From positions 14,479 through 78,478 of the forward strand of contig JAZDLN010000027.1 of assembly GCA_043801965.1 (NCBI GenBank): a stretch of DNA of 64,000 nucleotides, given 5' to 3'. The DNA comes from Candidatus Falkowbacteria bacterium (lineage in GTDB: Bacteria > Patescibacteriota > Patescibacteriia > Patescibacteriales > UBA12075). Every line of letters starts with the position of its first letter. Position 1 is the first letter of the stretch. The position numbers were made by a program, and so were the translations under genes. This document shows, piece by piece, positions 7,270-46,473 of the stretch. The notes under the pieces were generated by a model, which searched no databases, was not told the DNA's origin, and worked only from the letters and a program-made list of their open reading frames with translations.

Positions 7270-7303
7270 GCCTGTTTTTAATTAATTCTGACTATTTATC
7301 CAT

Positions 7304-7564: not shown

Positions 7565-7620
7565 CAGTTTTTAGCTTAAAGATATATAAGCGCGTATGGC
7601 CGGATCGAACGGCTCATGAT

Positions 7621-8334
7621 ATGTTGATAGATATCCATAATCTTAAAAAGGAATTTAGAACCGGTGAGGTCGTGACAAAAGTGCTCCACGGCCTTTCTTT
7701 TGTTATTGGCGAAGGAGAATTCGTGGCTATCATGGGTCCGTCCGGCTCGGGAAAATCAACGCTCATGCATATTTTAGGGCTTTTGGACCGACCCTCTTCC
7801 GGGAGTTATAAACTCGCCGGCCGGGAGGTAAGCACCTTAAGCGATAATGAACTGGCCGGCTTCCGGAACGAGAAGATCGGTTTCGTTTTCCAGGCCTTTA
7901 ACCTGCTGCCGCGCACCACGGTTTTGGAAAACGTGAAACTGCCCCTGACTTACGCGGCGGCCAAAGTCGATATGGATAAACGGGCGAAGGAGGTTTTGTC
8001 GAGCGTCGGCCTTTCTCATCGACTGCATCATTTTACGAACCAGATTTCGGGCGGAGAAAAACAGCGGGTGGCGATCGCGCGGGCGCTGGTTAACCGCCCT
8101 TCCGTGATTTTTGCCGATGAACCCACCGGCAACCTTGATTCAAAATCAGGCATCCAGATTATGGAAATTCTGCAGAAACTTAACGATGCCGGCAATACGA
8201 TAATTTTGGTTACGCACGAAACTTATACCGCGGAGCACGCCAAAAGGATCATCGAGGTCAGGGACGGACTCATAACCCGTGACCATAAGATATTAAAAAG
8301 ACGTTTTGCGCACGAAGGAGAAATGCTAAAATAG
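7621..8334 (+). CDS. MacB/LolD-type ABC transporter ATP-binding protein
   Basis: Walker [10 protein letters not shown], signature [15 protein letters not shown], Walker [12 protein letters not shown]. Confidence 0.93.
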
Positions 8335-8392
8335 TTTTTAAAAGAAAATAGCGTCTCAGATTCTTACATAATATCGCCTTAATCCTCAAGTC

Positions 8393-15733: not shown

Positions 15734-15802
15734 TATATCGGCAGATTTAATCGGACTTAAGTGTTGTGCTTTTTCCCTGATTTATGTTATAATAATGATG
15801 TT

Positions 15803-21717: not shown

Positions 21718-22881
21718 ATGAAAATTTGTCTGATAAACAATCTATACGAACCGTACGCGATCGGCGGCGCCGAGCAGGTGGTTAAAATGACATTCGAGGG
21801 TTTAAAAGAAGCCGGTCACGATGTTTTTATAATCACTACCCGACCAATATTTGAAAAAGCGGCCAAGGAACGGTCGGTTTATTATCTTCCGTCGTGGCAG
21901 TTCGTTTTTCGTAAAATGCCTAAATTTTTGCGTTTGATTTGGCACGTAGTTGATTTTGCCGATCCGGTTACCGGCTTTAGGATTAAAAAAATATTGGCCA
22001 GGGAAAAACCGGACGTGGTCATGACGCACAATCTGGTCGGTATCGGATTTTTACTTCCCCGCATTATTCGAAACCTGCGCATCAGACACGTTCATGTTCT
22101 GCACGATATTCAGATGCTTCACCCTTCCGGTTTGCTGATTTACGGTCGGGAAAACGTTATAAACGGCTTGGCCGCAAGAATTTACCAGTTTGCCTGCCGG
22201 AAACTGATCGCTTCCGCGGCTATAGTCGTTTCACCGTCGAATTGGCTTATTACGGAGCATACCAAGCGGGGATTTTTTAGAGATTCGCGTCGCGTGATAT
22301 TACCCAATCCGATTCCCCGATACGCGCCCATGACCGGGGAAAAGAGGGTCGACAATAAAGAATTTAAATTGCTTTTTGTCGGACAGATCGAGCCGCACAA
22401 GGGGATTCATTTTTTGATTGACGCGTTCGCTGAATTGACCGATAAATACAGGAATTTTTCCCTGACGTTTATCGGAAACGGCCTAAATGATTCTCGTTAC
22501 CTGTCCGCTATCAGCCGGCGAAACATCAGAAATATCGAGTTTAAGGGAAGAATCCCGAATGAGGAGGTAAAAAGATTAATGCCCGTCTTCGATTGTCTTG
22601 TAGTGCCGTCTCTTTGCCACGAGAATTCGCCTACGGTAATTTATGAAGCCGCCAGTCTCGGTTTAGCGGTCATAGCTTCCCGAATAGGCGGCATAAGCGA
22701 GCTGGTCCGGGATTTAGGGGGTATTTTATTCGTTCCCGGCAGCCGGACCGATCTTGCCCGAAAATTGATTTGGGCATCAAAAAATCCCCTTAAGCTTAAG
22801 GAGATGGTGAATAAAGCGAAAAGCCGATCCGAGCGTTATATTTTGCCTGTTTATATCGACAAACTCACGCGGTTATTGTGA
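21718..22881 (+). CDS. glycosyltransferase family 4
   Basis: GGAEQVV N-terminal motif and E-x7-E-like C-terminus (SLCHENSPTVIYEAASLGLAVIASRIGG). Confidence 0.85.
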   Translation: MKICLINNLYEPYAIGGAEQVVKMTFEGLKEAGHDVFIITTRPIFEKAAKERSVYYLPSWQFVFRKMPKFLRLIWHVVDFADPVTGFRIKKILAREKPDVVMTHNLVGIGFLLPRIIRNLRIRHVHVLHDIQMLHPSGLLIYGRENVINGLAARIYQFACRKLIASAAIVVSPSNWLITEHTKRGFFRDSRRVILPNPIPRYAPMTGEKRVDNKEFKLLFVGQIEPHKGIHFLIDAFAELTDKYRNFSLTFIGNGLNDSRYLSAISRRNIRNIEFKGRIPNEEVKRLMPVFDCLVVPSLCHENSPTVIYEAASLGLAVIASRIGGISELVRDLGGILFVPGSRTDLARKLIWASKNPLKLKEMVNKAKSRSERYILPVYIDKLTRLL

Positions 22882-23166
22882 AAAAATATTTTTTACGCCG
22901 TTGACATCATTTTTTTGCGATTTCTTTTCTATTTTTTCGATAACACTGTTGAAAATATTGATATTTAAGTCAGACGCGTTCGTTCGGTTGCCGAGGTAAT
23001 CCTCATCTATCACGAACGATCCATACAGGTTTTTGTTTAAAAAAGAATAAGTGAAAAAAAGAATGATGACGTTGACTGCCGCAATCAGGACGTAAATAGC
23101 TTTGAATATTCTTTTGTCAGTAAATTTGAGGCTAATTTTCATATTTTTTCGTGTTATTATTGCCAA
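22873..23166 (-). CDS. hypothetical single-TM protein, last gene of the pilus operon
   Basis: 97-aa ORF. Overlaps pilO-like by 10 nt and overlaps the convergent GT4 gene by 9 nt. Confidence 0.5.
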   Translation of the reverse strand: MAIITRKNMKISLKFTDKRIFKAIYVLIAAVNVIILFFTYSFLNKNLYGSFVIDEDYLGNRTNASDLNINIFNSVIEKIEKKSQKNDVNGVKNIFSQ

Positions 23167-23765
23167 TATGTTTCCCCTGAGATCCTTAACGATACGTTTC
23201 CGGCGACAGCCGGATTTTTTGTGTTCTCCTCCCCGCTTTCGATCGTGACGCGCCTGACGGGCGAATCGGAAGTCTGATAATTAAGATCAAGCAGATTTAT
23301 GTTAAAATAATAGTTTAAAGCCTCTAATTCGGCCAGGTAGTTCATGATGTCGGCAAATGAGCCCTGAGCGTCGATACTTAGGGCGGTTTTATCGTAAACA
23401 TCCTTTTTCTGTCCGGTCGGAGGGGTTAAATTTATTTTTTGCGTGACATTATTTTTGCCGGCCGCTTCCTCGAGGGTGGTAATGAATTCCAGTTCACGAT
23501 TCTTGTTTATGAAAATGTAATCCAGTTTTTCCATCTGCGGTTCGACGGTTTTAAGCTTTTCGCTTAGTACGGACAGGCTTTGGGCCGTATCGGCTTGCTT
23601 TTCAATGTCTAATTTTTGCGCCACGATTGCCAGGTGGAGGTTTTTTATGTCATTTACCGTAAACGCTATGAGAAAATAGATGATCAGGCAGGTCAAAACA
23701 GTGGCGCCCGCGCTCACGCCGATCATTCGCCCGATGCTTAAATTTTTAAATCCGGACAAATTCAT
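23157..23765 (-). CDS. PilO-like type IV pilus assembly protein
   Basis: One TM, coiled coil, small C-terminal domain. The call rests on its position after pilM-pilN. Confidence 0.6.
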   Translation of the reverse strand: MNLSGFKNLSIGRMIGVSAGATVLTCLIIYFLIAFTVNDIKNLHLAIVAQKLDIEKQADTAQSLSVLSEKLKTVEPQMEKLDYIFINKNRELEFITTLEEAAGKNNVTQKINLTPPTGQKKDVYDKTALSIDAQGSFADIMNYLAELEALNYYFNINLLDLNYQTSDSPVRRVTIESGEENTKNPAVAGNVSLRISGETYWQ

Positions 23766-24288
23766 AGTTTTTTATTTTTAAGCTGATGTCGAAATTTATG
23801 TTGGTTTTTTCCAGTAAATTCTTTAGAGGAAGATTGACCGATGAAAAATAGCCGGCATTTTCAAGGATTTCCTTGAGTTTAATAAGGTCATCCCTGTTCT
23901 CGGCGCGGCCGGATAGGTTCAATTCTTCTTTGTCTTTGTTGATGCTTAATTTCGCGTATTTTATCCCGTTTCCGGAATTATCGGCGATATACTCAATAAG
24001 ATAAGACCAAAGCACCGTATCTTTTTGGATTTTGTCGATAAAACTTATCTTGCCTTTGATATTTTTAATTTTTTCATCGTAATTTTCCCGGTTTTTCGCG
24101 GTTATGGCCGTTTCGTTCATGACTTCAATAAAACGGAGCTGAAGCACGAATTTGGCCGAGAGAAAAATAATGCCGTAAACGGCGAAGATCATAACGGAAA
24201 CGCCAAATAAAATTTTAAGCGATTTATATATCGACGCCAGTCTTTTTTCATTTTTCAATTCCTGCGGTATTATATTGAGTTTAAGCAT
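23746..24288 (-). CDS. PilN-like type IV pilus assembly protein
   Basis: N-terminal LNIIPQEL (INLLP-like PilM-binding motif), one TM, coiled coil. Confidence 0.68.
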   Translation of the reverse strand: MLKLNIIPQELKNEKRLASIYKSLKILFGVSVMIFAVYGIIFLSAKFVLQLRFIEVMNETAITAKNRENYDEKIKNIKGKISFIDKIQKDTVLWSYLIEYIADNSGNGIKYAKLSINKDKEELNLSGRAENRDDLIKLKEILENAGYFSSVNLPLKNLLEKTNINFDISLKIKNYEFVRI

Positions 24289-24295: not shown

Positions 24296-25390
24296 TTAAT
24301 TGATTTTTTCTAAAAAAATAGAACGCAAGGCCAGTCCAATGGCCGTAACGTAAGTAAGGCTGGCGTTTTGGCTTATTGTCGGCGACTTATCGCCGGTTTT
24401 TTCGTCCGGTATTTTCAGGTTGGTAAAAGCGTTGCCGATAGTGGTTTTAACGGCGACCGCGTCGCTTATGATAGTATCCAGTTTTTTTATGTTAGCTCCG
24501 CCGCCGCACAATATTATTTCATCCACTTTCCCGCGTTCACTATAGTTTTCATTAAAAAAGCTTAAAGCCTCTTTAATGCGCAGGATCAGCTCATCGATCT
24601 TTTTAGCCAGTATATCGCTTATGATCCCCTTGGCCTTGCTTTTGTCCAGTCCGCAGACGACCTTGGCTTTTTCGGCCTGGGGCTTATCTAATTCGAGGGT
24701 TTTCGCTATATCAGCGGTAACGGCTTCTCCGGAGATAGGAAGACTAACTGACAAAGCTATGGTATTTTTCGAATATATTATCAAGCTGGAACGCTTGGCC
24801 CCGAAATCGATAAGGCAGTAATTGCTGTCGTACGCGCCGCCGTACCAAGGGGATTCGGTTTCGAGTAATCCCCGGCAAATTGCGGTTGACTCTATTTCAA
24901 GAGAGGATATTGAAAAGTTCGCCCCTTTCAGAACGCGGACATACTGATCAACGATATTCCTGGGCGCCGCTCCGACCAGGATCAGTTTTTTGTCGGGCAG
25001 ATTTTTAATAGTTTGCCAATCCAGGTACATGTCCTTAAGAGAGATCGGGATATATTTTTCCGTTTCCGCCCGAACCATATCCGCCAGGTCATTCAAGCTG
25101 TTTTCGACCTCGATCAATTTTACGAAGGTTTTCGTTTCCGGCAGACAGGCGGTAACCTCGATCTTCCCGCTCCCTGACAGGTTTTTGTTTTTGAGCAATT
25201 CTGTCATCGCGGAAATGACCGCTTTTTCGTCATTAATAACGCCGCCCTCAATGAGACTATTGGGCAGATCTATCCTCCCGAAGTTCTTTAAGCTGATATT
25301 GTTTTTGATTTCGTCAAGCTGCACGAATTTCAAGGACAGATCCGATATATCCAAACCCAGAGGATAATTTAAACCTTGGCTTAAACGCAT
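24296..25390 (-). CDS. pilM: type IV pilus assembly protein PilM (actin-like ATPase fold)
   Basis: GLDISDLSLKFV start, DFGAKRSSL and CGGGANI motifs. Directly upstream of pilN/pilO-like genes. Confidence 0.85.
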   Translation of the reverse strand: MRLSQGLNYPLGLDISDLSLKFVQLDEIKNNISLKNFGRIDLPNSLIEGGVINDEKAVISAMTELLKNKNLSGSGKIEVTACLPETKTFVKLIEVENSLNDLADMVRAETEKYIPISLKDMYLDWQTIKNLPDKKLILVGAAPRNIVDQYVRVLKGANFSISSLEIESTAICRGLLETESPWYGGAYDSNYCLIDFGAKRSSLIIYSKNTIALSVSLPISGEAVTADIAKTLELDKPQAEKAKVVCGLDKSKAKGIISDILAKKIDELILRIKEALSFFNENYSERGKVDEIILCGGGANIKKLDTIISDAVAVKTTIGNAFTNLKIPDEKTGDKSPTISQNASLTYVTAIGLALRSIFLEKIN

Positions 25391-25461: not shown

Positions 25462-27027
25462 TTATTCCTCCTTCCAGGAGATGAAGGTGTATTCGCCCGT
25501 TGTGGGGTAATGGGGCGGGGGAGCGAAGGTCAGATTATTGTCGTATATAAGGTTTCTGATGTCGTATCCCGAGCACCATGGATCGCTCACTCCGCAGGAC
25601 CAGCTGAAACCATACCGTTCATCGGTTGATAGCGATCCATATATCGTGATAGTGTCTCTTTTGTAGAATTCCGCCCCGCAGCTTGATATATAATATTCTC
25701 GGCCGATTCTTCCTTCTTTCGCGATCATCGCCGCGTCGATCCTTAGTTCGCCGTCGTCAGCGGCCCCCAACGATCCCTCGCTATAAAGTCCGGGACCGAT
25801 ATTGTGCTGGGCGATCAATCCGATTATGTCCGTGCCGTCGTAATTCGTGTATAGCAGATCATTGTTAACCACGATATTCGCGATATCGGAGGTAAACGGT
25901 TCGAAGAACGCCAATATGGTGACACGGCTGCCGTCTATCTGCCCATCGACCCAAACGTGGTTCTTAATGAATATTACGCCATTTGTGGGTATTGGGAAAT
26001 TCTGGGCGACAGCCTCTTCGGCCAGGATACTGAGGCTTGGGTTGTTGCAGTCAGGCTGCAGTGCGGAAACGCCTCGGATATCAAAGGTGTTGTCGGTTTT
26101 GAGAGTTATGTGGATTCCCTCGTCGCAAGCGCCGCTAATGCAGCCCCAGTAAGACGGTTCCGAATCCGGGTCGGCCGTGCCCGCGCTTCTGGGATCGATC
26201 ACGAATCCTGAAGTTGTGGCTTTTATATAAACGTTGTTGATGTAATTATTAAGCATGTCAAAGCTGACGACGGATACGGGAAACTGCCGGCCAGCCAGGA
26301 AAATATCATCCTGAAGAGGCGGATTAGGCGGATTGGCGCCGTTGCTTATCTCATTGGAGTCGTAAGAGCCCATTCCGCTGTCATCGTGCGTATGCACTCC
26401 GAATTCAATAACATCCGTTCCGACTTCGTTATGGTCCGGATCGTCATAGTCCAGAAGCGCGGAGGAGATCACGTTATGCGCTATGCCATCGAACCGTATG
26501 CCGCCGTTAGAATGGATTGGGCCCCAAACCTCAGTACCTTCGCCGAATCTCATCGTGTCGTTGGCCAGGGTCGAATAGGTTGACCAGGCGGGAATACCGC
26601 ATTGGACCTCGATTGTCCGTTTATTCCCCGGATGATTGGCTACCCAGCCTACTGATTTTATTTTAACTATAGTGGAGCCGTTGGGCGGGGGAGGAGTTAT
26701 ATAAAGCTCGTAGTAGCCGGTAATATTCTGTCCGCTCGAGTCTTTATATTCGTACGGACCGTACGGTCCGTATGGAGGAGCGCTGATGCAGGTTTCGTTA
26801 TTGCAGTATTCCTCGTGGTCATGATATAAAACCCAGCGGTAATAATTTACGCCGGCTTCCGCGATGTGGATGGCCTGGGTGCTAGCGACTTTCGATAAAT
26901 TGAGCTTTTGCTGCAGCAGGGCCAATCCGATGGCTCCCATGGCTATGATCGAAAATAATCCGGTGAGCACGAGAACGATTATGATCATCGAGCCCCGGTT
27001 ATCGTTTTTTAGGTTGGAGTGGTCCAT
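25462..27027 (-). CDS. PilX_N/GspK-like large minor-pilin-associated protein
   Basis: N-terminus RGSMIIIVLVLTGLFSIIAMGAIGLALLQQ...AIHIAEAGVNYY resembles the PilX N-terminal domain. 521 aa. Confidence 0.62.
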   Translation of the reverse strand: MDHSNLKNDNRGSMIIIVLVLTGLFSIIAMGAIGLALLQQKLNLSKVASTQAIHIAEAGVNYYRWVLYHDHEEYCNNETCISAPPYGPYGPYEYKDSSGQNITGYYELYITPPPPNGSTIVKIKSVGWVANHPGNKRTIEVQCGIPAWSTYSTLANDTMRFGEGTEVWGPIHSNGGIRFDGIAHNVISSALLDYDDPDHNEVGTDVIEFGVHTHDDSGMGSYDSNEISNGANPPNPPLQDDIFLAGRQFPVSVVSFDMLNNYINNVYIKATTSGFVIDPRSAGTADPDSEPSYWGCISGACDEGIHITLKTDNTFDIRGVSALQPDCNNPSLSILAEEAVAQNFPIPTNGVIFIKNHVWVDGQIDGSRVTILAFFEPFTSDIANIVVNNDLLYTNYDGTDIIGLIAQHNIGPGLYSEGSLGAADDGELRIDAAMIAKEGRIGREYYISSCGAEFYKRDTITIYGSLSTDERYGFSWSCGVSDPWCSGYDIRNLIYDNNLTFAPPPHYPTTGEYTFISWKEE

Positions 27028-27029
27028 GG

Positions 27030-27629
27030 TTATAAGTTTGATTTTAGATTCCTCAAAGTAACGTCAGATTCAACATAAACATCTTTAGGCGCGGTTTCCG
27101 GCGTGACGTTAATTTTTAAATTTATGTTTATGAGCCTGACCTCGTTCGTCGTCGAAGCGATATTATAGCTGGAATTATAAAAAGTGAAAATATTCTCTTC
27201 CTGATTATTGACGAATTGGGCTATGGTCGTGCTGGCGGGAGCTTCGCTGTAATCGTTAAGCGCGCCGGGTTCCGTGACTTCCCTGATAAGATCAAGATCG
27301 TCAAGGTAATACCTCACTTTTTCATACCGGTCATCGGCGTCGATATCGGCGTAAAACACGAATTCCTGCTCTTCGATAGAGTCGAGAGCGTAACTGCCCT
27401 GTTCGGACGAATTCGCCCCCCTGATCTCTTTTTTCATGACGCTAATGGCGTTTCTGGCGTGCGCTATGGCCTCCGCTTGTTCCGCTTCGAATCTGGTGGC
27501 CTTAAACCCCGTAACCACCAAGCTTAGGGTCAGAGCGGATATTGAAGAAAGAATGGCGACAACGACCAGCACCTCCACCAAGGTAAACCCCGGTTCTTTT
27601 GTTTTTTTTATGAATCGAGCGAAGTTCAT
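27030..27629 (-). CDS. prepilin-type minor pilin (PilW/GspJ-like)
   Basis: Class III signal KEPG|FTLVEVLVVVAIL with Glu at +5. C-terminus ends ...VTLRNLKSNL. Confidence 0.8.
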   Translation of the reverse strand: MNFARFIKKTKEPGFTLVEVLVVVAILSSISALTLSLVVTGFKATRFEAEQAEAIAHARNAISVMKKEIRGANSSEQGSYALDSIEEQEFVFYADIDADDRYEKVRYYLDDLDLIREVTEPGALNDYSEAPASTTIAQFVNNQEENIFTFYNSSYNIASTTNEVRLININLKINVTPETAPKDVYVESDVTLRNLKSNL

Positions 27630-27638: not shown

Positions 27639-30600
27639 TTATTCAACGTATACGTTTACGGATTTAAATTCATCCGGATCTATGGCGACCGGGCACGGAT
27701 CCGGCTGGCAACCCTGCACCGTAAAAGCCGTTAACGTGCTCGAGGCGACTATGCTGTAAGCGCTATCCCACTCCAACTGGACGGTTATTTTCCCGTTTAT
27801 ATCAGAGGTATGCGTTTGGTCGAATTCGTACACGACCGGATTGTTATATATTTTTTTTGTACCGGTTATAACGAGGGGGATGTTCGCGATCGGAACCGCG
27901 GCGCCCGGGTTTTCGAAATGGGTGGCGTATATTTCGCCGACGCCCCATCTGCCGTCATACCAGGATGAGAAGAGGTGGGAATCGGAAGTTACAGCGATAC
28001 CGGGGGCACTCTGACTTGAACCCGAGGGAGCGTCGGATATTTTCTGGTCATCGGCCCACTGCGCGTTTCCGGAAAAATCATATTTTTGGGAGTAAATATC
28101 GTTATCCCCCAGGCGATCATCGGCCCAGACCAGGTAAATATCCGTGTTATCAGCGAAAATATCGGAAAATGCCTGATTTTCATTAGGTTCTTCGACGTTA
28201 GCGATCTTTTTCCAAAGCTCGACGCCGGCCGGATCGAAGCTTGCCAGATATATATCGTCCGATACGTCCTGGGATGTCCAGGTTACGATAATATTATCCG
28301 AGGCGTCAAAACTTATTTCCGGCGCCAGATCGGCGACAACGGAATTCGTCAGATTTTTATGACCGGCCCAAAGCTCATTGCCGGCCAGATCGAATTTTTG
28401 CATATAGATATCGTCTTGTTCCGTCCAGGCTATATAGACATTGTCGCCGGAATCGACAGCGACTACCGGGGCCGTTTCATCGGTCAATGAATTAGTTATC
28501 CGCAGATCATTCGTCCACTGCCTGGCGCCGTTTCCGTCAAAACATTGGGCATATATGTCCGTGTTGCCGTTTCTGTCGTCTTCCCAGACGATCGTCGTCG
28601 TGGCGTTTCCGAAGTTTTCGGTTATCGCGACGCGCGGATATCGCTGGTTGGCGTCGGACATGTCGGCATTCACTTTAACCGTACTCCAATTTTCCGTGCC
28701 ATCGCTATTTAAGCTTTTGAGATAGATATTATCATCCCCGATGATCGCGATTTCAGGGTATTCTTGATATGAAAACTCCGCGGTTGATCCCGCGTCCGTT
28801 AATCGGAAGCAGTAAGTCGATTCAAGCGCGTTAATGGTGGCCTCGATCGAATATTCAATTTCGGTGAATTGAGTCCCTGTTAACACGATCGCCGCAGTCT
28901 GGTTGCCGGCATCTTTTGTTTCCCCGGGGATAAAAACGATATTCTCATCCGATATCCCGGGGCTGTTCGTGGTCGGATCAGCATCGGTTAAGTTCGCGCT
29001 GGCCGAGATTTTCCAATGGAGACTATTATCCGTCGGCAAGGCCGTCCAGGCGGCGATAGCGTCACAGGTCGTATTTTTCACGCCGTATTCTATCCGGAAA
29101 TCGGACGGTGAAGAGTCGATACTGCCCTCGTTCGATATTTCGACGCGCAACCGGATTCGTGCATTCTGCCTTAATAATATTCCCGTATCCTGCGGCGCGC
29201 TCCACGTCGCGGAAGACTCGTCGCCGTCATCGTCTCTTAATCTATAATGCGTTTGCCGCAGGTCGGCGGAAGTAAGGAGGTTCGTGGTGCCGGGAATCGT
29301 TACTGCCGTATTCGGGATTACGGACCCGGAATTTATGATTATGTCGGTCGAGGGATCCGCAATTTCGATTTCTATGGTATCATCCTTGCCGGCCGTAGGT
29401 CCAACGTCAAATACGGGATAGGCGCACATGGTACTGGTCGTGTCGATATTCACTATGTCCGTAAAAGTCGATGTTCCGTCGGCCGAGTCGAAATTTTGCG
29501 CAACACCGAATTGAGCGTCCGTACCGGCGTCATAGGTTTCACCCGCGCAGTCGTAGGGGGCGGTCGCGTCTATATCGTAGAAAAGCTTAACGTTAGACAG
29601 GTCGTTCTGGGCGTCAACCGTGCCGTTCTCGCTTAGGGTGATACTCGTGATCGTATGAGCGCCGGTATTGTCAGTGAAAGCGAAGGCGCCGCCCGAGTAT
29701 TCGTTGATGTTCGGGATTATTATCGAGGCGGTTTGATTCCCGACTCCGGTAACGGTAATATTGTCAGGTACGATCTCGGGCCTTAGGACTAAGCACCAGT
29801 TAAAAGAATCGCTTGATACGTTCTTGTTCGCGTCATAATTACGCGCTCCGGTAGGGGAGTCGGCGATATCCACCTCCTCGTCGGCGCTGGCCGCGGTGAT
29901 ATAATCCGCGAAATTGTTTTCGGCGTTTAACATGCCGGCGGGAAAGGTCGGTCCGCCGTCACCTAGCGATCTGGTATCCGATCCCCAGCCGCATACGAGC
30001 ATCGAACCATCCGTCGTGACCGCGTGACTGGGGGCGGGGCGTAATTTATCGCCGTCATCGGTGTTTGCCTCGACAAGATTCCCATCGAACGGGCTTACCT
30101 GATCTACGCCCCTGTAAACCCTGATATGTCCGGCTTTTTCGTCGCTGCCGTCCCTCATCGTAAATGTATAGTTAGCGGGTTCGGAATTACCGGCGATTTT
30201 ATAAAAAATCCCTCCCCGGTGGTCGTCTTCCGCGCCGTTGGGATGAATATCGTCATCAAGCGTGCTCCAGCCGGCTGGAGGCAGTATCGGTCCGTCGGTC
30301 CATCGGTCGTGATGCACATAGGCGAAGAGGAGATCATTCTCCTGGGTAAGGGCCGGTACGTTAAGGGTGATGTTCCAGGTGTTTCCGGTCGCGGTCCCCC
30401 AAATATCCACGAAAGTAACGTTGCCGGTCGCCGCCCTGGCTCTTCGCGCGGGGAGATCGTTTATGAACTCGAATATAATATTTTTATTAAATTTAAAATC
30501 GTTGAAAATACCGGAAAATTTTTGCATTATATTTTCGTAAATATTCGCGGTCTTATGGTTTGCGATCACAAGGTTTACCGGACTTATGTTTTTCGCGTAC

Positions 30601-31703
30601 CTTTTCGACGGTTTATTCAGGGTGGTTTGTTTTAATACGACGGAACTGTCCTGCCAGACGACAAAAGAGGTGCCGTCGTTCGCGACCGCTATATCGGGAC
30701 GGCTCTGATTAGACGTATCGCTTATTTCGATCTTGTCTGCCCATTGCCTTATATTGCCGGAATTGAATTTTTGCGCGTACACGCTGGAAGTGGAAACATC
30801 CGATTCCTGCCAAACGAAAAAAATATTGTCTGATCCGTCAGCTCCCATTTTCGAGCCGGTTTTTTCGATCGTGGATGTTGCCGAATATATTAGCCAATTA
30901 GCCGGAGTCACGTCTGAATATGTGGTTATATCAAGAAGGGCAAGCTTGTCTATTGAAAAACTTTCTTCGGTCTTGTCGCCTTCCGTCACGGATAAATGCA
31001 GCGGCGTTAATCCGGAAAGAAGGTCAAAAGAATAATCCATGCCGTAGCCGGCTTTCGATACCGTGATCTCATAATCCTGGAACGATTCTGGCGCGGGCAA
31101 ATATAAAATACCGGTAGAATCCGTCACGTTAGTTACGTCAATGCCCAGACCAGCGTTTACGACCCTTATATCCGCGGCTGTTACCGGAAGAGCGTTAGAA
31201 TCCACGACATAGAGTTTTAACAATCCGTAACCCGCGGAGGTTTCTTCCGTTCTCGGGATGATCTTCGAAAATACGGTTATATCCTTATGGCCGTAGTTGC
31301 TGTCCCAGGAAACTTTGACAGTCGCGATCTTATAGTCGTTAGGGATCGTGTCCGGGGTAGTTGATCCGGCCAGGCCGTCATAATCGTCGTCGTAAAAAGT
31401 GACGTACGTGTTTACAGTAAAATTTTTATCCCTTACGACTGTTTCAACCTGCGGGATCGTTCCCGGGGGTATTCCGGAAACAACCCCGACATCGGAAAAG
31501 GGCATGTTCCTTATCCGTTCCATTTTTTGATCGGCAATTTCCATGGCGCTGACGTAATTCTTGTTATCGGCGGTAATACGCAAGGATATGATAATAAGGC
31601 TGTAGACGCCAAGCGTCAGGATCGATATAACCCCGATAGTTATTATAAGCTCCATGAGAGTGAAACCGTTTTGCGTTTTTTCTTGTTTGTGCGCGTGAAG
31701 CAT
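27639..31703 (-). CDS. giant (1354 aa) prepilin-type minor pilin (PilV/GspI-like N-terminus) fused to adhesin-like domains
   Basis: QNG|FTLMELIITIGVISIL prepilin motif, a carboxypeptidase-regulatory-like beta-sandwich (LKLYVVDSNALPV...ITVSKAGYG), and a C-terminal block of about 50-aa repeats with DIYxQxFDxxGxxxW cores. Confidence 0.8.
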   Translation of the reverse strand: MLHAHKQEKTQNGFTLMELIITIGVISILTLGVYSLIIISLRITADNKNYVSAMEIADQKMERIRNMPFSDVGVVSGIPPGTIPQVETVVRDKNFTVNTYVTFYDDDYDGLAGSTTPDTIPNDYKIATVKVSWDSNYGHKDITVFSKIIPRTEETSAGYGLLKLYVVDSNALPVTAADIRVVNAGLGIDVTNVTDSTGILYLPAPESFQDYEITVSKAGYGMDYSFDLLSGLTPLHLSVTEGDKTEESFSIDKLALLDITTYSDVTPANWLIYSATSTIEKTGSKMGADGSDNIFFVWQESDVSTSSVYAQKFNSGNIRQWADKIEISDTSNQSRPDIAVANDGTSFVVWQDSSVVLKQTTLNKPSKRYAKNISPVNLVIANHKTANIYENIMQKFSGIFNDFKFNKNIIFEFINDLPARRARAATGNVTFVDIWGTATGNTWNITLNVPALTQENDLLFAYVHHDRWTDGPILPPAGWSTLDDDIHPNGAEDDHRGGIFYKIAGNSEPANYTFTMRDGSDEKAGHIRVYRGVDQVSPFDGNLVEANTDDGDKLRPAPSHAVTTDGSMLVCGWGSDTRSLGDGGPTFPAGMLNAENNFADYITAASADEEVDIADSPTGARNYDANKNVSSDSFNWCLVLRPEIVPDNITVTGVGNQTASIIIPNINEYSGGAFAFTDNTGAHTITSITLSENGTVDAQNDLSNVKLFYDIDATAPYDCAGETYDAGTDAQFGVAQNFDSADGTSTFTDIVNIDTTSTMCAYPVFDVGPTAGKDDTIEIEIADPSTDIIINSGSVIPNTAVTIPGTTNLLTSADLRQTHYRLRDDDGDESSATWSAPQDTGILLRQNARIRLRVEISNEGSIDSSPSDFRIEYGVKNTTCDAIAAWTALPTDNSLHWKISASANLTDADPTTNSPGISDENIVFIPGETKDAGNQTAAIVLTGTQFTEIEYSIEATINALESTYCFRLTDAGSTAEFSYQEYPEIAIIGDDNIYLKSLNSDGTENWSTVKVNADMSDANQRYPRVAITENFGNATTTIVWEDDRNGNTDIYAQCFDGNGARQWTNDLRITNSLTDETAPVVAVDSGDNVYIAWTEQDDIYMQKFDLAGNELWAGHKNLTNSVVADLAPEISFDASDNIIVTWTSQDVSDDIYLASFDPAGVELWKKIANVEEPNENQAFSDIFADNTDIYLVWADDRLGDNDIYSQKYDFSGNAQWADDQKISDAPSGSSQSAPGIAVTSDSHLFSSWYDGRWGVGEIYATHFENPGAAVPIANIPLVITGTKKIYNNPVVYEFDQTHTSDINGKITVQLEWDSAYSIVASSTLTAFTVQGCQPDPCPVAIDPDEFKSVNVYVE

Positions 31704-31744
31704 AGAATGGCGCGGGATACATGAACCGCGCTTTTATTACGAGC

Positions 31745-32917
31745 TTAAATACTTTCCGTGATCGAGTACATCGGCATGATGATCGCGACCGCCACCCCGC
31801 CCACGCCCGTGCCCAGGAAAAGTATAAGCAAGGGCTCGATGATCGAGGGAAGATTGTCCATGATAAGATCAACCTCCTCTTCATAAAAAGAAGCTAATTC
31901 CATCAGGATATTATCAAGTTCTCCGGTCTCTTCGCCGACCGCGATCATGGTCGTGACGACCGGCGTGAATAATTTCGGATAAGCCGCCACGGTTTCAGAG
32001 AGCTTTCCGCCCTTTTTTATTTTCTGACTCATCTCCATGAGGGCGGTCCGATAATGCAGATTCCCCAGGACGTTGGCCGTGATCTGGAAAGCTTTTATTA
32101 TCATTATATCCGTTTTTAAAAGCGAGCTTATATTACGGGCGAAACGGGCCAGGTTTATTTTTTTGACGATTGGGGATATGATGGGCGCGTTTAAAAGGAT
32201 GGCTTGAAAGATATATTTGCCCCTTTGCGTTTTAAGGGCATAGAAAAGCGCGATAACGAAAGCGACGAACACGACCGCTGATACAAGGCCGTTCTTCGCT
32301 ATGGCGTTGCTGACGCCTATGAGTATTTTCGTGGGCAGGGGCAATTCCGTGTTCATCTCCGTGAACATCGCGGTCATTTTCGGTATGATCATGACCATCA
32401 TAAAAGCGCCGATGCCGAGCATGGCCAAAAGGATGATCGCCGGATAAGTCAGGGCGCCTTTAACCTTGGAAATAAGCGTGTTTTCCTTTTTCATCTGGAT
32501 GAAAAGCTGCGCCAAAACGTTCTCAAGCTTGCCGGAGATCTCACCGGCTTCCACCATGCTGACGAAAAGCTCCCCGAATATATTTTTGTGGGCCCCCAGG
32601 CTTTCGGCAAAGCTCGAGCCTTTTTCGACGCGGGAAGCGACGTCATTTAATACCGAGATGAAGTTTTTGTTTTTTGTCTGCTGCGACAGCGTTTTCAGGG
32701 CGGTGGAAAGGGATATTCCCGATTTAAGCATCAATCCGAGGTGTTGGACGAAAAATAATTTTTCCTTAAGCGGAATACGGGTAAACCGCAGGAGATAATT
32801 ATTGATTTTGTCCATCGTCGACAAGGGCTTTTCCCCGGTTTGTGAAGCATCCGCTTTTTCCGCGTCGTCCGGTGCGTTTGAATCTAAGGTTAAATTAACA
32901 GCCATGGTTTTGACCAT
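31745..32917 (-). CDS. pilC: type IV pilus platform protein PilC (GspF family)
   Basis: Two GspF repeats, 3 TM, typical ...GEETGELDNIL motif. An alternative start lies at 32905. Confidence 0.9.
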   Translation of the reverse strand: MVKTMAVNLTLDSNAPDDAEKADASQTGEKPLSTMDKINNYLLRFTRIPLKEKLFFVQHLGLMLKSGISLSTALKTLSQQTKNKNFISVLNDVASRVEKGSSFAESLGAHKNIFGELFVSMVEAGEISGKLENVLAQLFIQMKKENTLISKVKGALTYPAIILLAMLGIGAFMMVMIIPKMTAMFTEMNTELPLPTKILIGVSNAIAKNGLVSAVVFVAFVIALFYALKTQRGKYIFQAILLNAPIISPIVKKINLARFARNISSLLKTDIMIIKAFQITANVLGNLHYRTALMEMSQKIKKGGKLSETVAAYPKLFTPVVTTMIAVGEETGELDNILMELASFYEEEVDLIMDNLPSIIEPLLILFLGTGVGGVAVAIIMPMYSITESI

Positions 32918-32985
32918 TGACCTTTGACCTTTGACCTTTGACCGGTCAAATGTTAAATGCCAAATGTTAAATGTAAATATTTCTT
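32906..32985. repeat. Intercistronic (pilB-pilC) imperfect hairpin of 7-nt units TTTGACC / GGTCAAA-TGTTAAA
   Basis: tttgacc-attgacc-tttgacc-tttgacc-tttgacc | ggtcaaatgttaaatgccaaatgttaaatgtaaat. The central 14-nt tttgaccggtcaaa is a perfect palindrome. Confidence 0.8.
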
Positions 32986-34705
32986 ATTCTTTGGTAACCC
33001 GCATGATCTCTTCGATCGTGGTAATGCCGTTTTTAGCTTTGATGAATCCGTCCTCAACCATGGTTATCATGCCGCCCTTGATCGCCTGGGTGTTTATTTC
33101 GCGGGCACTGGCTCCCTTCAAAATCAAAGACGCGATATCGGCATTGTTCTCCATTACCTCATAAATTCCGATGCGTCCCTTGTATCCGGTATTGTTGCAG
33201 CGTTTGCAGCCTTTGCCGCGGTAAAAAAGCAGGGAACCAAGACCTTTTTTGGCGTCCAAAATGCTTTTTTCTTTTTCCATGGTTTTAAGGATATTTTCCA
33301 TGTTCATTTGTTTTTCGAGCTCCCGGACGTTATCCGCGCTTAAATTGAAACTCTGGATGCAATTGGGGCATATCTTCCTGACAAGCCGCTGAGCGATAAT
33401 AATATTGACCGTCGTGGATATTAAAAAGGCCGGCACGCCCATCTCCGAGAGGCGGGGCATGGTCGTAGCCGCGTCATTGGTGTGTATGGTGGTTAAAACC
33501 AGGTGGCCGGTCATGGCGGCGTGGATGGCGATCTCGGCGGTTTCCTGGTCGCGGATCTCGCCGACCATGATAATATCCGGATCCTGCCTTAAGAAGGCGC
33601 GCAATCCGGAGGCGAAAGTGTACCCGATCTTGGAGTTGGTTTGCGATTGGTTGATATGGGGCATGCGGTATTCGATCGGGTCTTCGATCGTGGAGATGTT
33701 GACTTCCGGCTTATTAAGAATATTCAGAACCGTATATAGAGTGGTGGTTTTACCGCTTCCGGTAGGACCCGTGACGAATATGATCCCGTGCGGTTTGTCT
33801 ATGTTGCTTTTCAGGATGCCCAAGGGGCCGGATTGAAGCCCAAGTTGCTCCAGGGAGAGGACCTGGGCGCTTTCCTTGAGCAGACGAAGCACGATTTTTT
33901 CACCGTCGAAGGTGGGAATAATGGAAACGCGAAAGGAAACTTTGTATTCCTCGTTGGCGATCTTAAAGCGGCCGTCCTGGGGCAGGCGATGTTCATCAAC
34001 TTTCAGGTTGGCCAATATTTTTATTCTGGCGACTATGCCCGACTGGACGGTTTTGGGGAGCACCATTACCCGGTGCATGATGCCGTCAATGCGGTACCGT
34101 ACCAAAACATTCTTTTCCTCCGGTTCGATATGGATATCGCTGGCCCCTTCGATGATGGAGTATTCAAGCAGAGTGTCGACGATTCTCACGACCGGCAGAT
34201 CTTCGGCCAACTGCTTAAGATTACTCCCTTCTTTAGCGGTTTTTTCCGTCGACAAATAATCAAATTCAGCTTTTAAGCTTTTGTGGTATTGTTTTAAGGC
34301 GTCTTTGATATTTTCCGGCGTTGTCAGATGGATCTTTAAGGTCAAGCCGGTCTTTTTCTTCAGGAATTCTAAAATGTCGAGAGCATCCGGATTGATGACG
34401 GCCAGCTTCAATTCCTTGTCGTTGGAATCAAAAGCGATGATCTTGTGGGTAACGGCGATCGGTTCCGGAATCGAGAACAGCACGTCTTTACGGATAGTCT
34501 GGTTTTTTAGATCAATAAAGGGGATTTTATAAAAATTCGCGGCATTCTCGAACAGAGCGACGGGAGAAATTATTTTCTTTTCGGTCAGATAATCGGCAGT
34601 ATCCATATTGGCCGCTTCGGCTTCATGTTGGTATTTATCGAAATCGGCCGCGGTTAAAACTTCGGTTTTTAAGAGGATATCCTTTAATTTGGAGTTCGAA
34701 AACAT
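32984..34705 (-). CDS. pilB: type IV pilus assembly ATPase PilB (GspE family)
   Basis: Walker A GPTGSGKTTT, Asp/His boxes, tetracysteine CPNC...CKRC, N-terminal GSPII_E_N-like domain. Confidence 0.93.
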   Translation of the reverse strand: MFSNSKLKDILLKTEVLTAADFDKYQHEAEAANMDTADYLTEKKIISPVALFENAANFYKIPFIDLKNQTIRKDVLFSIPEPIAVTHKIIAFDSNDKELKLAVINPDALDILEFLKKKTGLTLKIHLTTPENIKDALKQYHKSLKAEFDYLSTEKTAKEGSNLKQLAEDLPVVRIVDTLLEYSIIEGASDIHIEPEEKNVLVRYRIDGIMHRVMVLPKTVQSGIVARIKILANLKVDEHRLPQDGRFKIANEEYKVSFRVSIIPTFDGEKIVLRLLKESAQVLSLEQLGLQSGPLGILKSNIDKPHGIIFVTGPTGSGKTTTLYTVLNILNKPEVNISTIEDPIEYRMPHINQSQTNSKIGYTFASGLRAFLRQDPDIIMVGEIRDQETAEIAIHAAMTGHLVLTTIHTNDAATTMPRLSEMGVPAFLISTTVNIIIAQRLVRKICPNCIQSFNLSADNVRELEKQMNMENILKTMEKEKSILDAKKGLGSLLFYRGKGCKRCNNTGYKGRIGIYEVMENNADIASLILKGASAREINTQAIKGGMITMVEDGFIKAKNGITTIEEIMRVTKE

Positions 34706-35459: not shown

Positions 35460-36509
35460 ATGCAGGATTTTTACATCATTAAGATCCTTTTTTTTACCAC
35501 CATGGCGTTTGTTTTTACTATCGCCTGGACGCCGCTTCTCACTCATTTTCTGTATAAATACAAGCTTGGAAAGCAGATCAGGGATGACGGTACGACGCCT
35601 CTTTTCAGTAAGTTGCACGCTCACAAGGCCGGTACGCCGACAATGGGAGGCCTCTTGGTCTGGGTAACGACCCTGGTTTTTAGCCTGGTATTTTTCTATC
35701 TGGCTAAATTTTTTCCCTGGAGCATCTTCCATGATCTTGATTTCTTATCGCGCCGGGAAACGCTTTTGCCCTTGGGTTGCCTGGTATCTTCGGCTTTAGT
35801 GGGGCTGATCGATGATTATTTGGACGTAAGAAGGATGGGTTATAAAAAAAGAGGGATAAAATTCAGCCACAAGCTCCTTATTTATACCTTTATTGCTCTT
35901 ATCGGGGCCTGGTGGTTTTATTTTAAATTGGATTGGGATATTATCCATATCCCTTTCCTGGGCACGGTATATGTCGGCTGGGGTTACATATTATTCTTCG
36001 TTGCCATCGTGGTAGGGACGGCGTTCGCGGTCAATCAAACCGACGGGCTGGACGGGTTGGCGGGCGGAACCCTTCTGATCGCTTTTGCCGCTTACAGCGT
36101 GATCGCTTTTTCAACCGGCCGATATGATCTGGCCGCGTTTTGCGGGGTTATCGTCGGCGCTCTTCTGGCCTTTCTGTGGTTTAATATTAATCCAGCCCGT
36201 TTTATAATGGGGGATACGGGTTCGATATCTTTGGGAGTTACCCTGGCTTTAGTGGCGCTTTATACGAATACCGCGTTTATCCTGCCATTTTTAGGCATCA
36301 TTTTCGTGGTGGAAGCGGTTTCGACGGTTGTGCAGATACTCTCGAAAAAACTTCGCGCCGGAAAAAAGGTTTTCCGGTCGGCGCCCATACATCATCATTT
36401 TGAAGCCTTGGGTTGGCCGGAACCGAAGATAGTCATGCGATTTTGGGTAATCGCGGGGGTGTTCGCGGTCATGGGACTGATCATATTTTTACTGGATAAG
36501 ACTATTTAG
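35460..36509 (+). CDS. mraY: phospho-N-acetylmuramoyl-pentapeptide transferase
   Basis: Full-length MraY pattern (KxGTPTMGG, DDxxD, NQTDGLDGLA, HHHFE). Confidence 0.93.
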   Translation: MQDFYIIKILFFTTMAFVFTIAWTPLLTHFLYKYKLGKQIRDDGTTPLFSKLHAHKAGTPTMGGLLVWVTTLVFSLVFFYLAKFFPWSIFHDLDFLSRRETLLPLGCLVSSALVGLIDDYLDVRRMGYKKRGIKFSHKLLIYTFIALIGAWWFYFKLDWDIIHIPFLGTVYVGWGYILFFVAIVVGTAFAVNQTDGLDGLAGGTLLIAFAAYSVIAFSTGRYDLAAFCGVIVGALLAFLWFNINPARFIMGDTGSISLGVTLALVALYTNTAFILPFLGIIFVVEAVSTVVQILSKKLRAGKKVFRSAPIHHHFEALGWPEPKIVMRFWVIAGVFAVMGLIIFLLDKTI

Positions 36510-36510
36510 G

Positions 36511-36572
36511 ATTTTAGGCGCTAGGCCTTAAGCATTAGTTTGACGGCTGGTTAAAGCCTAAAACCTCAATGC
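36511..36572. repeat. Imperfect hairpin with TTAGGC / GCCTAA units (mraY-ftsW spacer)
   Basis: ttaggc (36515-36520) pairs with gcctaa (36556-36561). Same unit as the 14364-14449 element. Confidence 0.55.
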
Positions 36573-36587
36573 CCGGATAATTAATAA

Positions 36588-37736
36588 ATGTCAAAACTGA
36601 AAAGAAATCTAAAAAGGCTTTTGAACTCCGGAAACACCGGACACGAACCGGATAAAAGTTTGCTCGCGGTTATCTTTATAATACTTATTTTCGGCCTGAT
36701 CTCGTTATCAAGCGCTTCTTCGGTGGTAGCCTACGCGAAGTTCGGGGACGCTTATCATTATTTTAAAAACCAGCTTTTCGGTCTTGCGCTTGGATTGGGG
36801 GCGTTTTGGTTTTTTTCCCGGGTGGATTATCATTTATGGCGCAAATACGCTTTCGGCTTTCTGGTATCATCGATCGTTTTACTGCTTCTCGTTTTTATCC
36901 CCGGTCTGGCCGTCGATTACGGCACGGCCTCCAGCTGGATAACCGTTTTCGGGCATTCACTGCAACCTTCCGAGCTCGTGAAAATATCCTTTCTTCTTTA
37001 CCTGGCCGCCTGGCTCGAAACCAGAAAAGAGGAACTGGGAGACGTTTCCCGCGGCATCGGTCCCTTTCTGGTGGTTTTAGGGATTATTACCTTTTTGATG
37101 ATAAAACAGCCCGATATCGGTACGCTGTCGATCATAGCGATTACCTCATTGATCGTTTATTTCGTCGGCGGGGGGCAATTAAAGCATATATTACTGATTT
37201 TTCTCATTGGCGCCGTCGGCTTCGCCGTTATGGTGCAGTTACGGCCATATCAGTTGCAACGTTTCCAGTGCATGTTCGATCCCGGTTTTGATAAAGTCAA
37301 AACCTGCTATCAGGTTAACCAATCCCTGATCGCGGTCGGTTCGGGCGGTGTTTTCGGCCGGGGGTTGGGCGAGTCGCGGCAGAAATTCATGTACCTGCCG
37401 GAGATCCAGGGCGATTCTATTTTTGCGGTTATCGCCGAGGAAACCGGATTGATAGTAAGTTCTCTTTTTATAGCCTGCTATTTGTATTTTTTTTATCGCG
37501 GATTGCTTGTCGCCCGGTCCGCGCCCGACGATTTCGGACGGATCCTGGCGATCGGCATAGTGAGCTGGATCGTTATCCAGGCGCTTATCAATATCGGCGG
37601 AATAGTGAATCTTTTGCCTATGACCGGCGTTCCCTTGCCCCTGGTAAGCTACGGCGGCTCGGCTTTGCTGGCGGCTTTGTCGGCCTGCGGGATACTGGTT
37701 AATATTTCAAAGCAAACCAAAACCCGTAATATGTAA
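36588..37736 (+). CDS. ftsW: SEDS-family peptidoglycan polymerase FtsW
   Basis: FtsW/RodA 10-TM pattern (QPSELVK, PDIGT, LPMTGVPLPLVSYGGS). mraY-ftsW-murG context. Confidence 0.88.
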   Translation: MSKLKRNLKRLLNSGNTGHEPDKSLLAVIFIILIFGLISLSSASSVVAYAKFGDAYHYFKNQLFGLALGLGAFWFFSRVDYHLWRKYAFGFLVSSIVLLLLVFIPGLAVDYGTASSWITVFGHSLQPSELVKISFLLYLAAWLETRKEELGDVSRGIGPFLVVLGIITFLMIKQPDIGTLSIIAITSLIVYFVGGGQLKHILLIFLIGAVGFAVMVQLRPYQLQRFQCMFDPGFDKVKTCYQVNQSLIAVGSGGVFGRGLGESRQKFMYLPEIQGDSIFAVIAEETGLIVSSLFIACYLYFFYRGLLVARSAPDDFGRILAIGIVSWIVIQALINIGGIVNLLPMTGVPLPLVSYGGSALLAALSACGILVNISKQTKTRNM

Positions 37737-37746
37737 TTATAAAAAT

Positions 37747-42172: not shown

Positions 42173-42257
42173 TTTTTAAATTTTATAATTTTTAATTTTT
42201 AAACAAGACGGCTAATCACGATTTTTTAAAAATTACAAAATTTAAAAATTTGTCAGT
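42173..42257. repeat. AT-rich imperfect inverted repeat (murC-murB spacer)
   Basis: aatttttaaattttataatttttaatttttaaa versus tttaaaaattacaaaatttaaaaattt. Confidence 0.6.
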
Positions 42258-46388: not shown

Positions 46389-46473
46389 AATCCTGATGCG
46401 CTTTTTTAGAATAATTTAATTTTTGCGTGATATAAAGAGTAAAACCGGAGACTTTAAATTCAATCCAAAAAAT

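Follow-up and report, generated by a model that had tools for sequence, protein, structure and literature searches.

Modular pilins have been defined as proteins in which a pilin module at the N-terminus (IPR012902) is joined to at least one module that is not specific to type IV pili (T4P) (Raynaud et al., 2021, PMC8179133). In Streptococcus sanguinis, PilA/B/C make up a tip complex with adhesive modular pilins, of which PilB carries a vWA module and PilC carries Ig and ConA-like lectin modules (PMC8179133, PMC9934059). The architecture 'IPR012902 - PF13620' is the third most frequent one among modular pilins, with 66 proteins (Dataset S1 of PMC8179133), and examples from the Candidate Phyla Radiation (CPR) are mentioned in the same paper. 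PilX2 of the saccharibacterium Nanosynbacter lyticus TM7x consists of a pilin and a C-terminal seven-bladed propeller, and it is required for efficient host binding (PMC11623550). Here we describe a protein of 1354 residues, in the following called the giant pilin, which is encoded in a T4P operon of a Candidatus Falkowbacteria bacterium (Parcubacteria/Patescibacteria, CPR). Its gene is located at 27639..31703 on the minus strand of a stretch of 64,000 nucleotides of the contig JAZDLN010000027.1, which was analyzed as a whole and is called the window, and all other genes of the operon are on the same strand. The giant pilin is a modular pilin, in which a CarboxypepD_reg-like sandwich (S), a beta-propeller (W), the domains A, B, and C, and a C-terminal sandwich (T) are added to the pilin module (P). 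It belongs to a known class, of which it is a large member, and does not represent a new kind of system; by analogy to PilB/PilC of S. sanguinis and to PilX2 of Saccharibacteria it is best read as a tip-displayed adhesin.

Like PilB and PilC of S. sanguinis, the giant pilin belongs to a T4P operon of the monoderm type, and its pilin module, which is short and starts with a class III signal, bears non-pilin, putatively adhesive modules. Both systems have three minor pilin genes, one of them without Glu5, and in both the proposed location at the tip is forced by the bulk of the cargo. However, their sequences resemble each other in the N-terminal motif only. The cargo of the giant pilin comprises about 1200 residues of all-beta extracellular domains beyond the pilin module, organized in six to seven domains including a propeller with a nested cassette, compared to about 300-350 residues in S. 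sanguinis, and the subunit without Glu5 is a bulky protein of 521 residues instead of the small PilA. With PilX2, the giant pilin shares the origin from a lineage of CPR episymbionts, the combination of a pilin-like N-terminus with a seven-bladed propeller, and the status of largest pilin gene of its locus; for PilX2, fold comparisons also pointed to PLL-type lectins of Photorhabdus (PMC11623550). PilX2 differs in having RCC1-type repeats and no predicted PilD signal, in contrast to the PD40/SBBP-like repeats and the canonical G↓FTLxE signal of the giant pilin (the arrow marks the cleavage site), and it has neither the S and T sandwiches nor the nested A-B-C arm. The two proteins are compared here by their descriptions.

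Three further systems are instructive. PilY1/PilC of diderm type IVa pili is, like the giant pilin, a large propeller protein that is thought to be presented at the tip together with core minor pilins. However, PilY1 is a non-pilin that docks onto PilVWX and has an IPR008707 propeller (PMC8179133), whereas the giant pilin carries its own pilin module, and no family of the PilC/PilY1 type (IPR008707) was found at E <= 1 in Pfam scans of the giant pilin or of 35 homologs. The minor subunits GspH/I/J/K (FimU-PilVWX) resemble the present cassette in that a small pilin module, a pilin of about 200 residues, and a bulky subunit without Glu5 follow each other in that gene order beside assembly genes, and in that conservation is highest for the K-like protein. 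Yet no protein of the cassette reaches the curated cut-offs of PilV/GspI, GspJ/PilW, or GspK/PilX, an equivalent of H/FimU is lacking, and the 521-residue protein is much larger than GspK and has no match in the PDB by sequence. Lastly, CofB/TcpB of type IVb pili and ComZ of Thermus are also pilin modules with additional beta-rich domains that act at the tip (PMC8179133), but their additions, a beta-repeat and a beta-sandwich in CofB and a beta-solenoid in ComZ, are much smaller and include neither a propeller nor nested domains.

Results

The giant pilin gene is an open reading frame (ORF) with an ATG start and without internal stops, and the product is identical to NCBI MFH0891993.1, which is annotated as 'prepilin-type N-terminal cleavage/methylation domain-containing protein'. 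The N-terminus, MLHAHKQEKTQNG↓FTLMELIITIGVISIL, reaches 25.7 bits with Pfam N_methyl (PF07963, gathering cut-off 21.2) and 24.7 bits with TIGR02532 (cut-off 16.3). It has a class III signal, KTQNG↓FTLMELIITIGVISILTLGVYSLII, with Phe at +1 and Glu at +5, as had been proposed in a preliminary description of the window that was made from the sequence alone. The leader peptide (residues 1-13, MLHAHKQEKTQNG, 31665..31703) ends in Gly at -1, the predicted prepilin peptidase site. It is followed by the pilin module (residues 14-154, 31242..31664) with F+1, E+5, the alpha1 helix, and a four-stranded antiparallel sheet. AlphaFold2 predicted residues 1-300 with a mean predicted local distance difference test score (pLDDT) of 83.5, and the values of the pilin module are mostly 83-95. 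In the model, a long alpha1 helix (residues 16-65) is packed on an antiparallel sheet of four strands (residues 86-148), which is the topology of the pilin fold. The module contains an acidic loop (residues 103-125, FYDDDYDG...D..DYK) with the pattern FYDD(D/P)YDG..GS..D.I..DYK, in which D106, D109, G110, D118, and D123 are invariant in 35-61 homologs (residues 105-125, 31329-31391) and which has a low pLDDT of 57-72. Calcium-binding loops stabilize some pseudopilins, and the acidic loop could be such a putative Ca2+-binding loop. The mature giant pilin has a mass of 146 kDa, a pI of 4.2, and 9.9% Asp.

The body of the protein (residues 155-1354) was modeled with AlphaFold2 and a family alignment with a mean pLDDT of 86.3, and only residues 359-425 were disordered. 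Its first domain, the beta-sandwich S (residues 155-265, 30909..31241), is prealbumin/CarboxypepD_reg-like. The carboxypeptidase regulatory-like sandwich had already been named in the preliminary description, and it is confirmed by the family rather than by the giant pilin itself: CarboxypepD_reg (PF13620) yields 19.5 bits for residues 165-222, below the threshold of 32.3, but among 35 family members it matches 23 with E <= 0.01, the best E being 7e-10, and Foldseek found C-terminal domains of carboxypeptidases N/D, the SusC NTE domain, and CnaB-type domains.

The preliminary description had also listed repeat cores and suggested that they form a beta-propeller. All of them were found where it had placed them, VYAQKFNSGNIRQW at residues 308-321, DIYAQCF.. 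at 1049, DIYMQKF.. at 1098, DIYLASF.. at 1150, DIYSQKY.. at 1202, and EIYATHF at 1257, and the C-terminal block at 27915-28736 corresponds to residues 990-1263. A blade hidden Markov model (HMM) of 53 positions, which was made from blades 3-6 of 35 homologs, matches the giant pilin eight times with i-Evalues from 1e-23 to 1e-5, so the repeats are far beyond chance. Blade 1 is located at residues 283-322 (E 9e-11) and blades 3-7 at residues 1011-1269, while two matches are partial: residues 328-354 cover only HMM positions 6-32 (E 9e-8), and residues 989-1007 cover only positions 34-52. The two halves at 354 and 989 therefore represent one split blade, which makes seven blades in all. The N-terminal piece of the propeller (residues 266-354, 30642..30908, pLDDT about 90) comprises blade 1 together with strands A-B of blade 2 and ends with ...FVVWQDSS; the C-terminal piece (residues 989-1270, 27894..28739) contains strands C-D of the same blade (GDDNIYLKSLNSDGTENW), followed by blades 3-7. 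Homologs of 745-778 residues are colinear with the giant pilin and are devoid of residues 355-988. In P0052, for example, residues 37-390 align with residues 8-354 of the giant pilin (54% identity), and residues 392-758 align with residues 989-1354 (43% identity). As judged from these alignments, the early repeat copy and the C-terminal repeats are parts of one propeller, with blade 2 being interrupted by 634 residues.

The consensus of the repeats is sPsIaid..dniyiaWtDdRsGnkDIYlqkfDlsGnklW, which we take to resemble the PD40 pattern. The SBBP LipL53 family matches the giant pilin with E 9e-9, but its 34.5 bits are below the cut-off of 400; the matches to TIGR04275 and to the PDIAV lipoprotein model are weak, and in Pfam scans PD40 matches one and BNR_4 three of the 35 family members. 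The blade repeats thus appear to be of the PD40/SBBP/PDIAV type, as suggested by weak matches below the thresholds. The protein ends with the beta-sandwich T (residues 1271-1354, 27642..27893, AlphaFold2 model), which is kept in relatives without the propeller; the HMM of the T domain matches the forms of about 440 residues immediately after the first sandwich.

The insertion site is the loop between the second and the third strand of blade 2. No Pfam family was found for residues 355-985 in the giant pilin or in 35 homologs, in agreement with the preliminary description, which could not assign the central region; it is not a separate segment, as had been assumed, but an insert of residues 355-988 in the loop of blade 2. 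It starts with a disordered linker (residues 355-425, 30429..30641), which has a pLDDT below 50 at residues 359-425, the lowest conservation in the family, and partial gaps. Domain A (residues 426-645, 29769..30428) is a beta-sandwich in the AlphaFold2 model (pLDDT about 75-94) and the most divergent folded domain across the family. It matches phrog_3329 with E 1.2e-6 over 193 residues, and a structural search of BFVD, for which the query region is not reported, retrieved minor tail proteins of actinophages as well as phage proteins with a length of about 200 residues, at about 20% identity. In the relatives P0042, P0078, and P0082, which are long pilins, domain A is replaced by a different, unassigned domain. 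A word-index homolog search with domain A alone (29751-30428) returned no matches and missed even P0001, which is about 92% identical, and this result was treated as a false negative.

Domains B (residues 646-810, 29274..29768) and C (residues 811-988, 28740..29273) are also beta-sandwiches in the AlphaFold2 model. Each has an invariant pair of cysteines, C719/C760 in domain B and C880/C965 in domain C, and domain C contains the motif HYRxRNDDGDE..ATW. When 1.84 billion representatives were searched exhaustively with HMMER, 10,898 matches at E <= 1e-3 were obtained, of which those listed were scanned again with the domain HMMs. Among the matches listed, domain B reaches 24 copies in one protein of 3924 residues, domain C reaches 21 copies in one protein of 6179 residues, and many proteins have a (B-C)n arrangement. 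These array proteins lack a prepilin motif, with the exception of one protein of 288 residues with two B domains, and all of the long pilins among these matches have the order P-S-W-A-B-C-W-T. As modules of such arrays, domains B and C are widespread. Because domain C re-enters the blade directly and is anchored on the propeller, while domain A is tethered back by a flexible linker of 70 residues, the A-B-C arm would project outward, with C as its proximal part and A as its distal head.

In a search space of 5.8 billion proteins, 50 full-length homologs of 1310-1491 residues were found at 37-56% identity, plus one at 90%, and a scan of GTDB species representatives revealed the long form in 14 species. 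The motif G↓F(T/S)LxE, the loss of which in orthologs would have spoken against the preliminary description, is present wherever the gene call extends far enough upstream. Measured against the 90%-identical strain (L005), the ratio of nonsynonymous to synonymous substitution rates (dN/dS) is 0.11 for the whole gene, and the single domains range from 0.02 to 0.20. Constraint is strongest in the pilin module and the first sandwich; the dN/dS is 0.19 for leader plus helix and 0.02 for the rest of the pilin module. Diversifying selection was not detected in this comparison at the scale of domains, the maximum being 0.20 in domain B.

The preliminary description had suggested a comparison of size and repeat number between strains. 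The size of the protein varies between relatives, but the number of repeats does not; the occupancy is about 1.0 across all blades. Instead, the presence of whole modules varies. At the GTDB loci, the form P-S-T(-S') of about 435-495 residues occurs in Moranbacteria, Andersenbacteria, and others, a form P-S-x-T-S' has about 565 residues, the form P-S-W-T of about 710-750 residues occurs in Komeilibacteria and some Falkowbacteria, and the form P-S-W(A-B-C)-T of about 1354-1401 residues occurs in Falkowbacteria and related Parcubacteria. The family grew by nested accretion of modules on a conserved P-S-T scaffold, from about 440 residues to about 740 residues with the propeller and about 1350-1400 residues with the arm. 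In other CPR lineages, the pilin in the same slot of the operon bears other modules, namely a right-handed beta-helix in P0060, two ConA-like Laminin_G_3 domains in P0182, and a pentraxin-type domain in P0063. The variety of modules in one slot argues for a carrier pilin with exchangeable cargo.

Many records of metagenome-assembled genomes (TPA_asm) that are titled 'uncultured Gammaproteobacteria' or 'uncultured Bdellovibrionales' carry the CPR-type pilin cassette, for example the loci L006, L012, L015, L018, L022-L024, L026, L042, L057, and L059. Probably, these are Patescibacteria bins whose taxonomic labels are wrong.

The operon has the order pilB, pilC, giant pilin, a pilin of 199 residues, the protein of 521 residues, pilM, pilN, pilO, and a small ORF of 97 residues. 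The genes upstream of the giant pilin encode the ATPase PilB (32984-34705, Pfam T2SSE, E 3e-129) and the platform protein PilC (31745-32917, Pfam T2SSF, E 3e-50), and the downstream genes include pilM (24296-25390, PilM_2, E 5e-43), pilN (23746-24288), and pilO (23157-23765), the latter two with weak matches to PilN and PilO, respectively. The spacers are short, 41 nt between pilC and the giant pilin gene, 9 nt between the latter and the 199-residue pilin gene, and 2 nt between the two partner genes. A GC-rich hairpin between pilC and the giant pilin gene (about 31710-31731) was considered and rejected, because it is no better than shuffled sequence (z = -1.1).

Both partner genes are present at the positions given in the preliminary description. 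The first (27030..27629) encodes a minor prepilin of 199 residues (KEPG↓FTLVE), which reaches 26.5 bits with N_methyl and is named 'type II secretion system protein' by NCBI. It is weakly recognized by the HMM of the pilin module of the giant pilin (27033-27629, E 4.6e-4 over 119 positions), and the two pilin modules may be distant paralogs. The second (25462..27027) encodes the protein of 521 residues, which has an N-terminal hydrophobic helix after RG↓S, no Glu at +5, and the NCBI PGAP name 'pilus assembly PilX N-terminal domain-containing protein'. It yields 20.6 bits with PilX_N (cut-off 25.5) and 13.8 bits with GspK (cut-off 130). It is a candidate for a bulky, K-like cap subunit. It has 2235 homologs, of which the best 120 are 51-100% identical; it is thus more conserved than the giant pilin (37-56%), which fits a core assembly role of the partner and an effector role of the giant pilin. 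Searches of the PDB with sequence profiles of all three families returned only N-terminal pilin helices or noise.

At the loci that were checked by hand, genes for a pilin of about 190-200 residues and for a protein of about 490-570 residues come after the giant pilin gene, in this order, even in rearranged operons, and a pattern scan found a small pilin after most of the complete giant-type genes. The three-gene cassette is syntenic across Parcubacteria, and the claim of a minor-pilin trio that is led by the giant pilin inside a T4P operon is supported. The labels PilV/GspI, PilW/GspJ, and PilX/GspK, which had been given to its members, are not supported by the scores, all of which are below the family cut-offs. 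In a six-frame motif scan of the 64-kb window, the giant pilin and the 199-residue pilin were the only two canonical prepilins.

The small ORF directly after pilO (22873-23166) has one predicted transmembrane helix and no Pfam family. ORFs of 90-91 residues occupy the same position after pilO in L001 and L003, where the order of pilM, pilN, and pilO is also the same, and the small ORF may encode an overlooked part of the pilus machinery of the CPR.

At its other end, the pilus operon adjoins mraY-ftsW-murG genes divergently, followed further on by murC- and murB-like genes (35460-38862 and 40769-43205, plus strand). This adjacency was also observed in L001, a distant Parcubacteria genome. In the locus L002, which is part of a Parcubacteria contig of 1.27 Mb, the giant pilin cassette is located beside a gene that has been called at 8033 residues and has no Pfam match (region 1-9360, minus strand); the part of this gene within L002 contains no A, B, C, or propeller modules.

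Three additional regions of the window deserve mention. A protein of 713 residues (46423-48564, plus strand) is a TrwB/VirD4-like coupling protein/HerA-type ATPase that contains a treble-clef zinc finger (Pfam E 1e-11), and it is preceded by an ORF of 515 residues without a family; this region may be the remnant of a conjugative or DNA translocation system. At 51238-52764, two long ORFs of 435 residues (minus strand) and 484 residues (plus strand) overlap almost fully; neither has a Pfam match, and the region is the most GC-rich part of the window (0.52-0.53). A subtilase of 724 residues (Peptidase_S8) that is fused to FG-GAP repeats (15761-17935, plus strand) is encoded amid genes for a glycosyltransferase, an epimerase, and MreB, and it is probably a surface or secreted protein.

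Discussion

On balance, the giant pilin is probably a modular minor pilin that acts as an adhesin at or near the tip of a type IV pilus and is primed together with its two partners. A prepilin peptidase, which is not encoded in the window, would cleave after Gly13, and the mature subunit of 146 kDa would enter the pilus via its alpha1 helix, together with the 199-residue pilin and the 521-residue subunit that lacks Glu5. The three proteins would form a priming or tip complex, and the bulky extension of the giant pilin could be accommodated only at or near the tip. There, the surface of a host or partner cell would offer a ligand for the propeller and domain A, most likely a glycan. That the pilin itself carries the adhesin, and not a separate PilY1, had been claimed before; this agrees with the data, and no gene of the PilY1/PilC type is present in the window, while the adhesive function as such is inferred. 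As a concept, the pilin-borne adhesin was already established by the modular pilins (PMC8179133, PMC9934059) and by PilX2 (PMC11623550).

Several observations weigh against this proposal. The PilV model TIGR02523 reaches only 21.5 bits with the giant pilin (cut-off 52.2) and covers only the helix (residues 11-67), and the GspI model TIGR01707 does not match it. For the 199-residue protein, the GspJ model TIGR01711 yields 20.7 bits (cut-off 64.85), and ComGE, GspG, and ComGF are similarly weak. The window contains no gene for a major pilin, PilD, or PilT. In Foldseek comparisons of the N-terminal 300 residues, no type IV pilin was among the 50 matches listed, and the assignment of the pilin fold thus rests on topology. 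The predicted TM-score (pTM) of the body is only 0.58, and the relative placement of the domains is therefore uncertain. The closure of the propeller by the N-terminal blades is suggested by the HMM matches and the colinearity with the short forms. The likeness to lectins is one of fold at 8-13% identity, and it identifies no binding site. Lastly, cleavage, incorporation into the pilus, location at the tip, the geometry of the arm, and glycan binding are all inferred steps.

The fold comparisons also bear on the nature of the extension. Foldseek searches of the body against the PDB were led by three groups: sialidase propellers (E 1.4e-8), the glycoside hydrolases BT3686 and GH159, and two seven-bladed lectins of Photorhabdus for fucose/rhamnose, PLL and PHL, with a TM-score of about 0.5 on the target; the output gives no aligned query region, and the assignment of these matches to the propeller is our reading. 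The hydrolase matches would be expected if the extension were a pilus-borne glycoside hydrolase or polysaccharide depolymerase that acts on the capsule or the cell wall glycans of the host, like a phage tailspike. BNR_4 in three family members, the pectate-lyase/NosD-type fold of the right-handed beta-helix in the same slot of another CPR lineage, and the relatives of domain A among phage proteins point in the same direction. Nevertheless, an enzyme is unlikely. A motif scan found no Asp-box (SxDxGxTW), FRIP, or RGD motif in the giant pilin, the hydrolases are 8-12% identical (TM-scores of 0.2-0.5), and the non-catalytic lectin propellers PLL and PHL match about equally well. The conserved positions mostly belong to the repeated blade motif (W.D.R.GN.DIY) and seem to be structural. 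The giant pilin can also not be counted among the sialidases of GH33, which are characterized by a six-bladed propeller with Asp-box repeats, a FRIP motif, and a catalytic Arg triad, because it has seven repeats instead of six blades and lacks both sialidase motifs, so that the likeness is a match of fold at 8-10% identity.

Incorporation into a pilus is a separate issue. Archaeal substrate-binding proteins with class III signals provide a precedent for proteins that are anchored and not polymerized, and the prepilin signal of the giant pilin might likewise serve only for export and anchoring of a surface adhesin or binding protein. The very large cargo (146 kDa) and the lack of a major pilin gene in the operon and in the window would fit. 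However, Glu5 and the alpha1 helix are strongly conserved, the dN/dS values of the leader plus helix and of the rest of the pilin module are low, and the synteny with two pilin-like genes and with pilB/C/M/N/O is strict even where the operon is rearranged. Furthermore, the modular pilins of S. sanguinis, which have a similar design, are incorporated into pili (PMC8179133). We therefore regard a merely anchored protein as quite improbable.

CPR bacteria are considered to rely on the import of building blocks, and a tip complex that captures DNA, for natural transformation or for nucleotide scavenging in the manner of ComZ and Com pili, had been raised in the preliminary description as the alternative to host attachment. 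Although DNA binding has precedents among minor pilins, ComZ being one (cited in PMC8179133), the mature giant pilin is very acidic, which argues against DNA capture, no DNA-binding domain was found in its Pfam and NCBIfam scans, and its fold matches are propellers that bind or process glycans. Of the two functions, attachment is thus favored, as a conditional reading, and DNA capture is highly unlikely. An artificial fusion of a pilin gene and a surface protein gene by misassembly or frameshift is refuted by the recurrence of this architecture in about 50 homologs from independent assemblies and in 14 genomes at the species level, by purifying selection across every domain, and by insertion boundaries that fall exactly inside one propeller blade.

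If the giant pilin is a tip adhesin, the A-B-C arm and the propeller might even constitute a host-recognition device that resembles phage receptor-binding proteins, with domain A as an exchangeable head that sets the host. Two facts would fit, namely that domain A has relatives in phage proteins and that it is swapped in some relatives of the giant pilin, but we consider this more specific idea to be speculative and rather doubtful at present.

With a mature mass of 146 kDa, the giant pilin exceeds the largest modular pilin of the 2021 survey, which has 860 residues (PMC8179133). It is a clear example of a three-domain cassette that is nested in the blade of a beta-propeller, and neither the blade-nested cassette nor the series of module accretion was described in the literature that we found. 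Most of its domains have no database signature, and surveys that are based on signatures would therefore detect at most CarboxypepD_reg. The concept of modular pilins is not changed by the giant pilin.

Outside Saccharibacteria, little is known of the means by which CPR/Patescibacteria cells locate and retain their hosts, and the giant pilin family is a concrete and conserved candidate for the attachment tip of T4P in Parcubacteria. The content of its slot shifts with the lineage, from a propeller to a propeller with an arm, a beta-helix, a ConA-like lectin, or a pentraxin. If the idea of a host-recognition device is true, the series P-S-T, P-S-W-T, and P-S-W(A-B-C)-T would record the stepwise gain of host-range modules, which would have been drawn from giant CPR surface proteins and from phages, and the module content of the slot would predict pairings of CPR bacteria and hosts from metagenomes.

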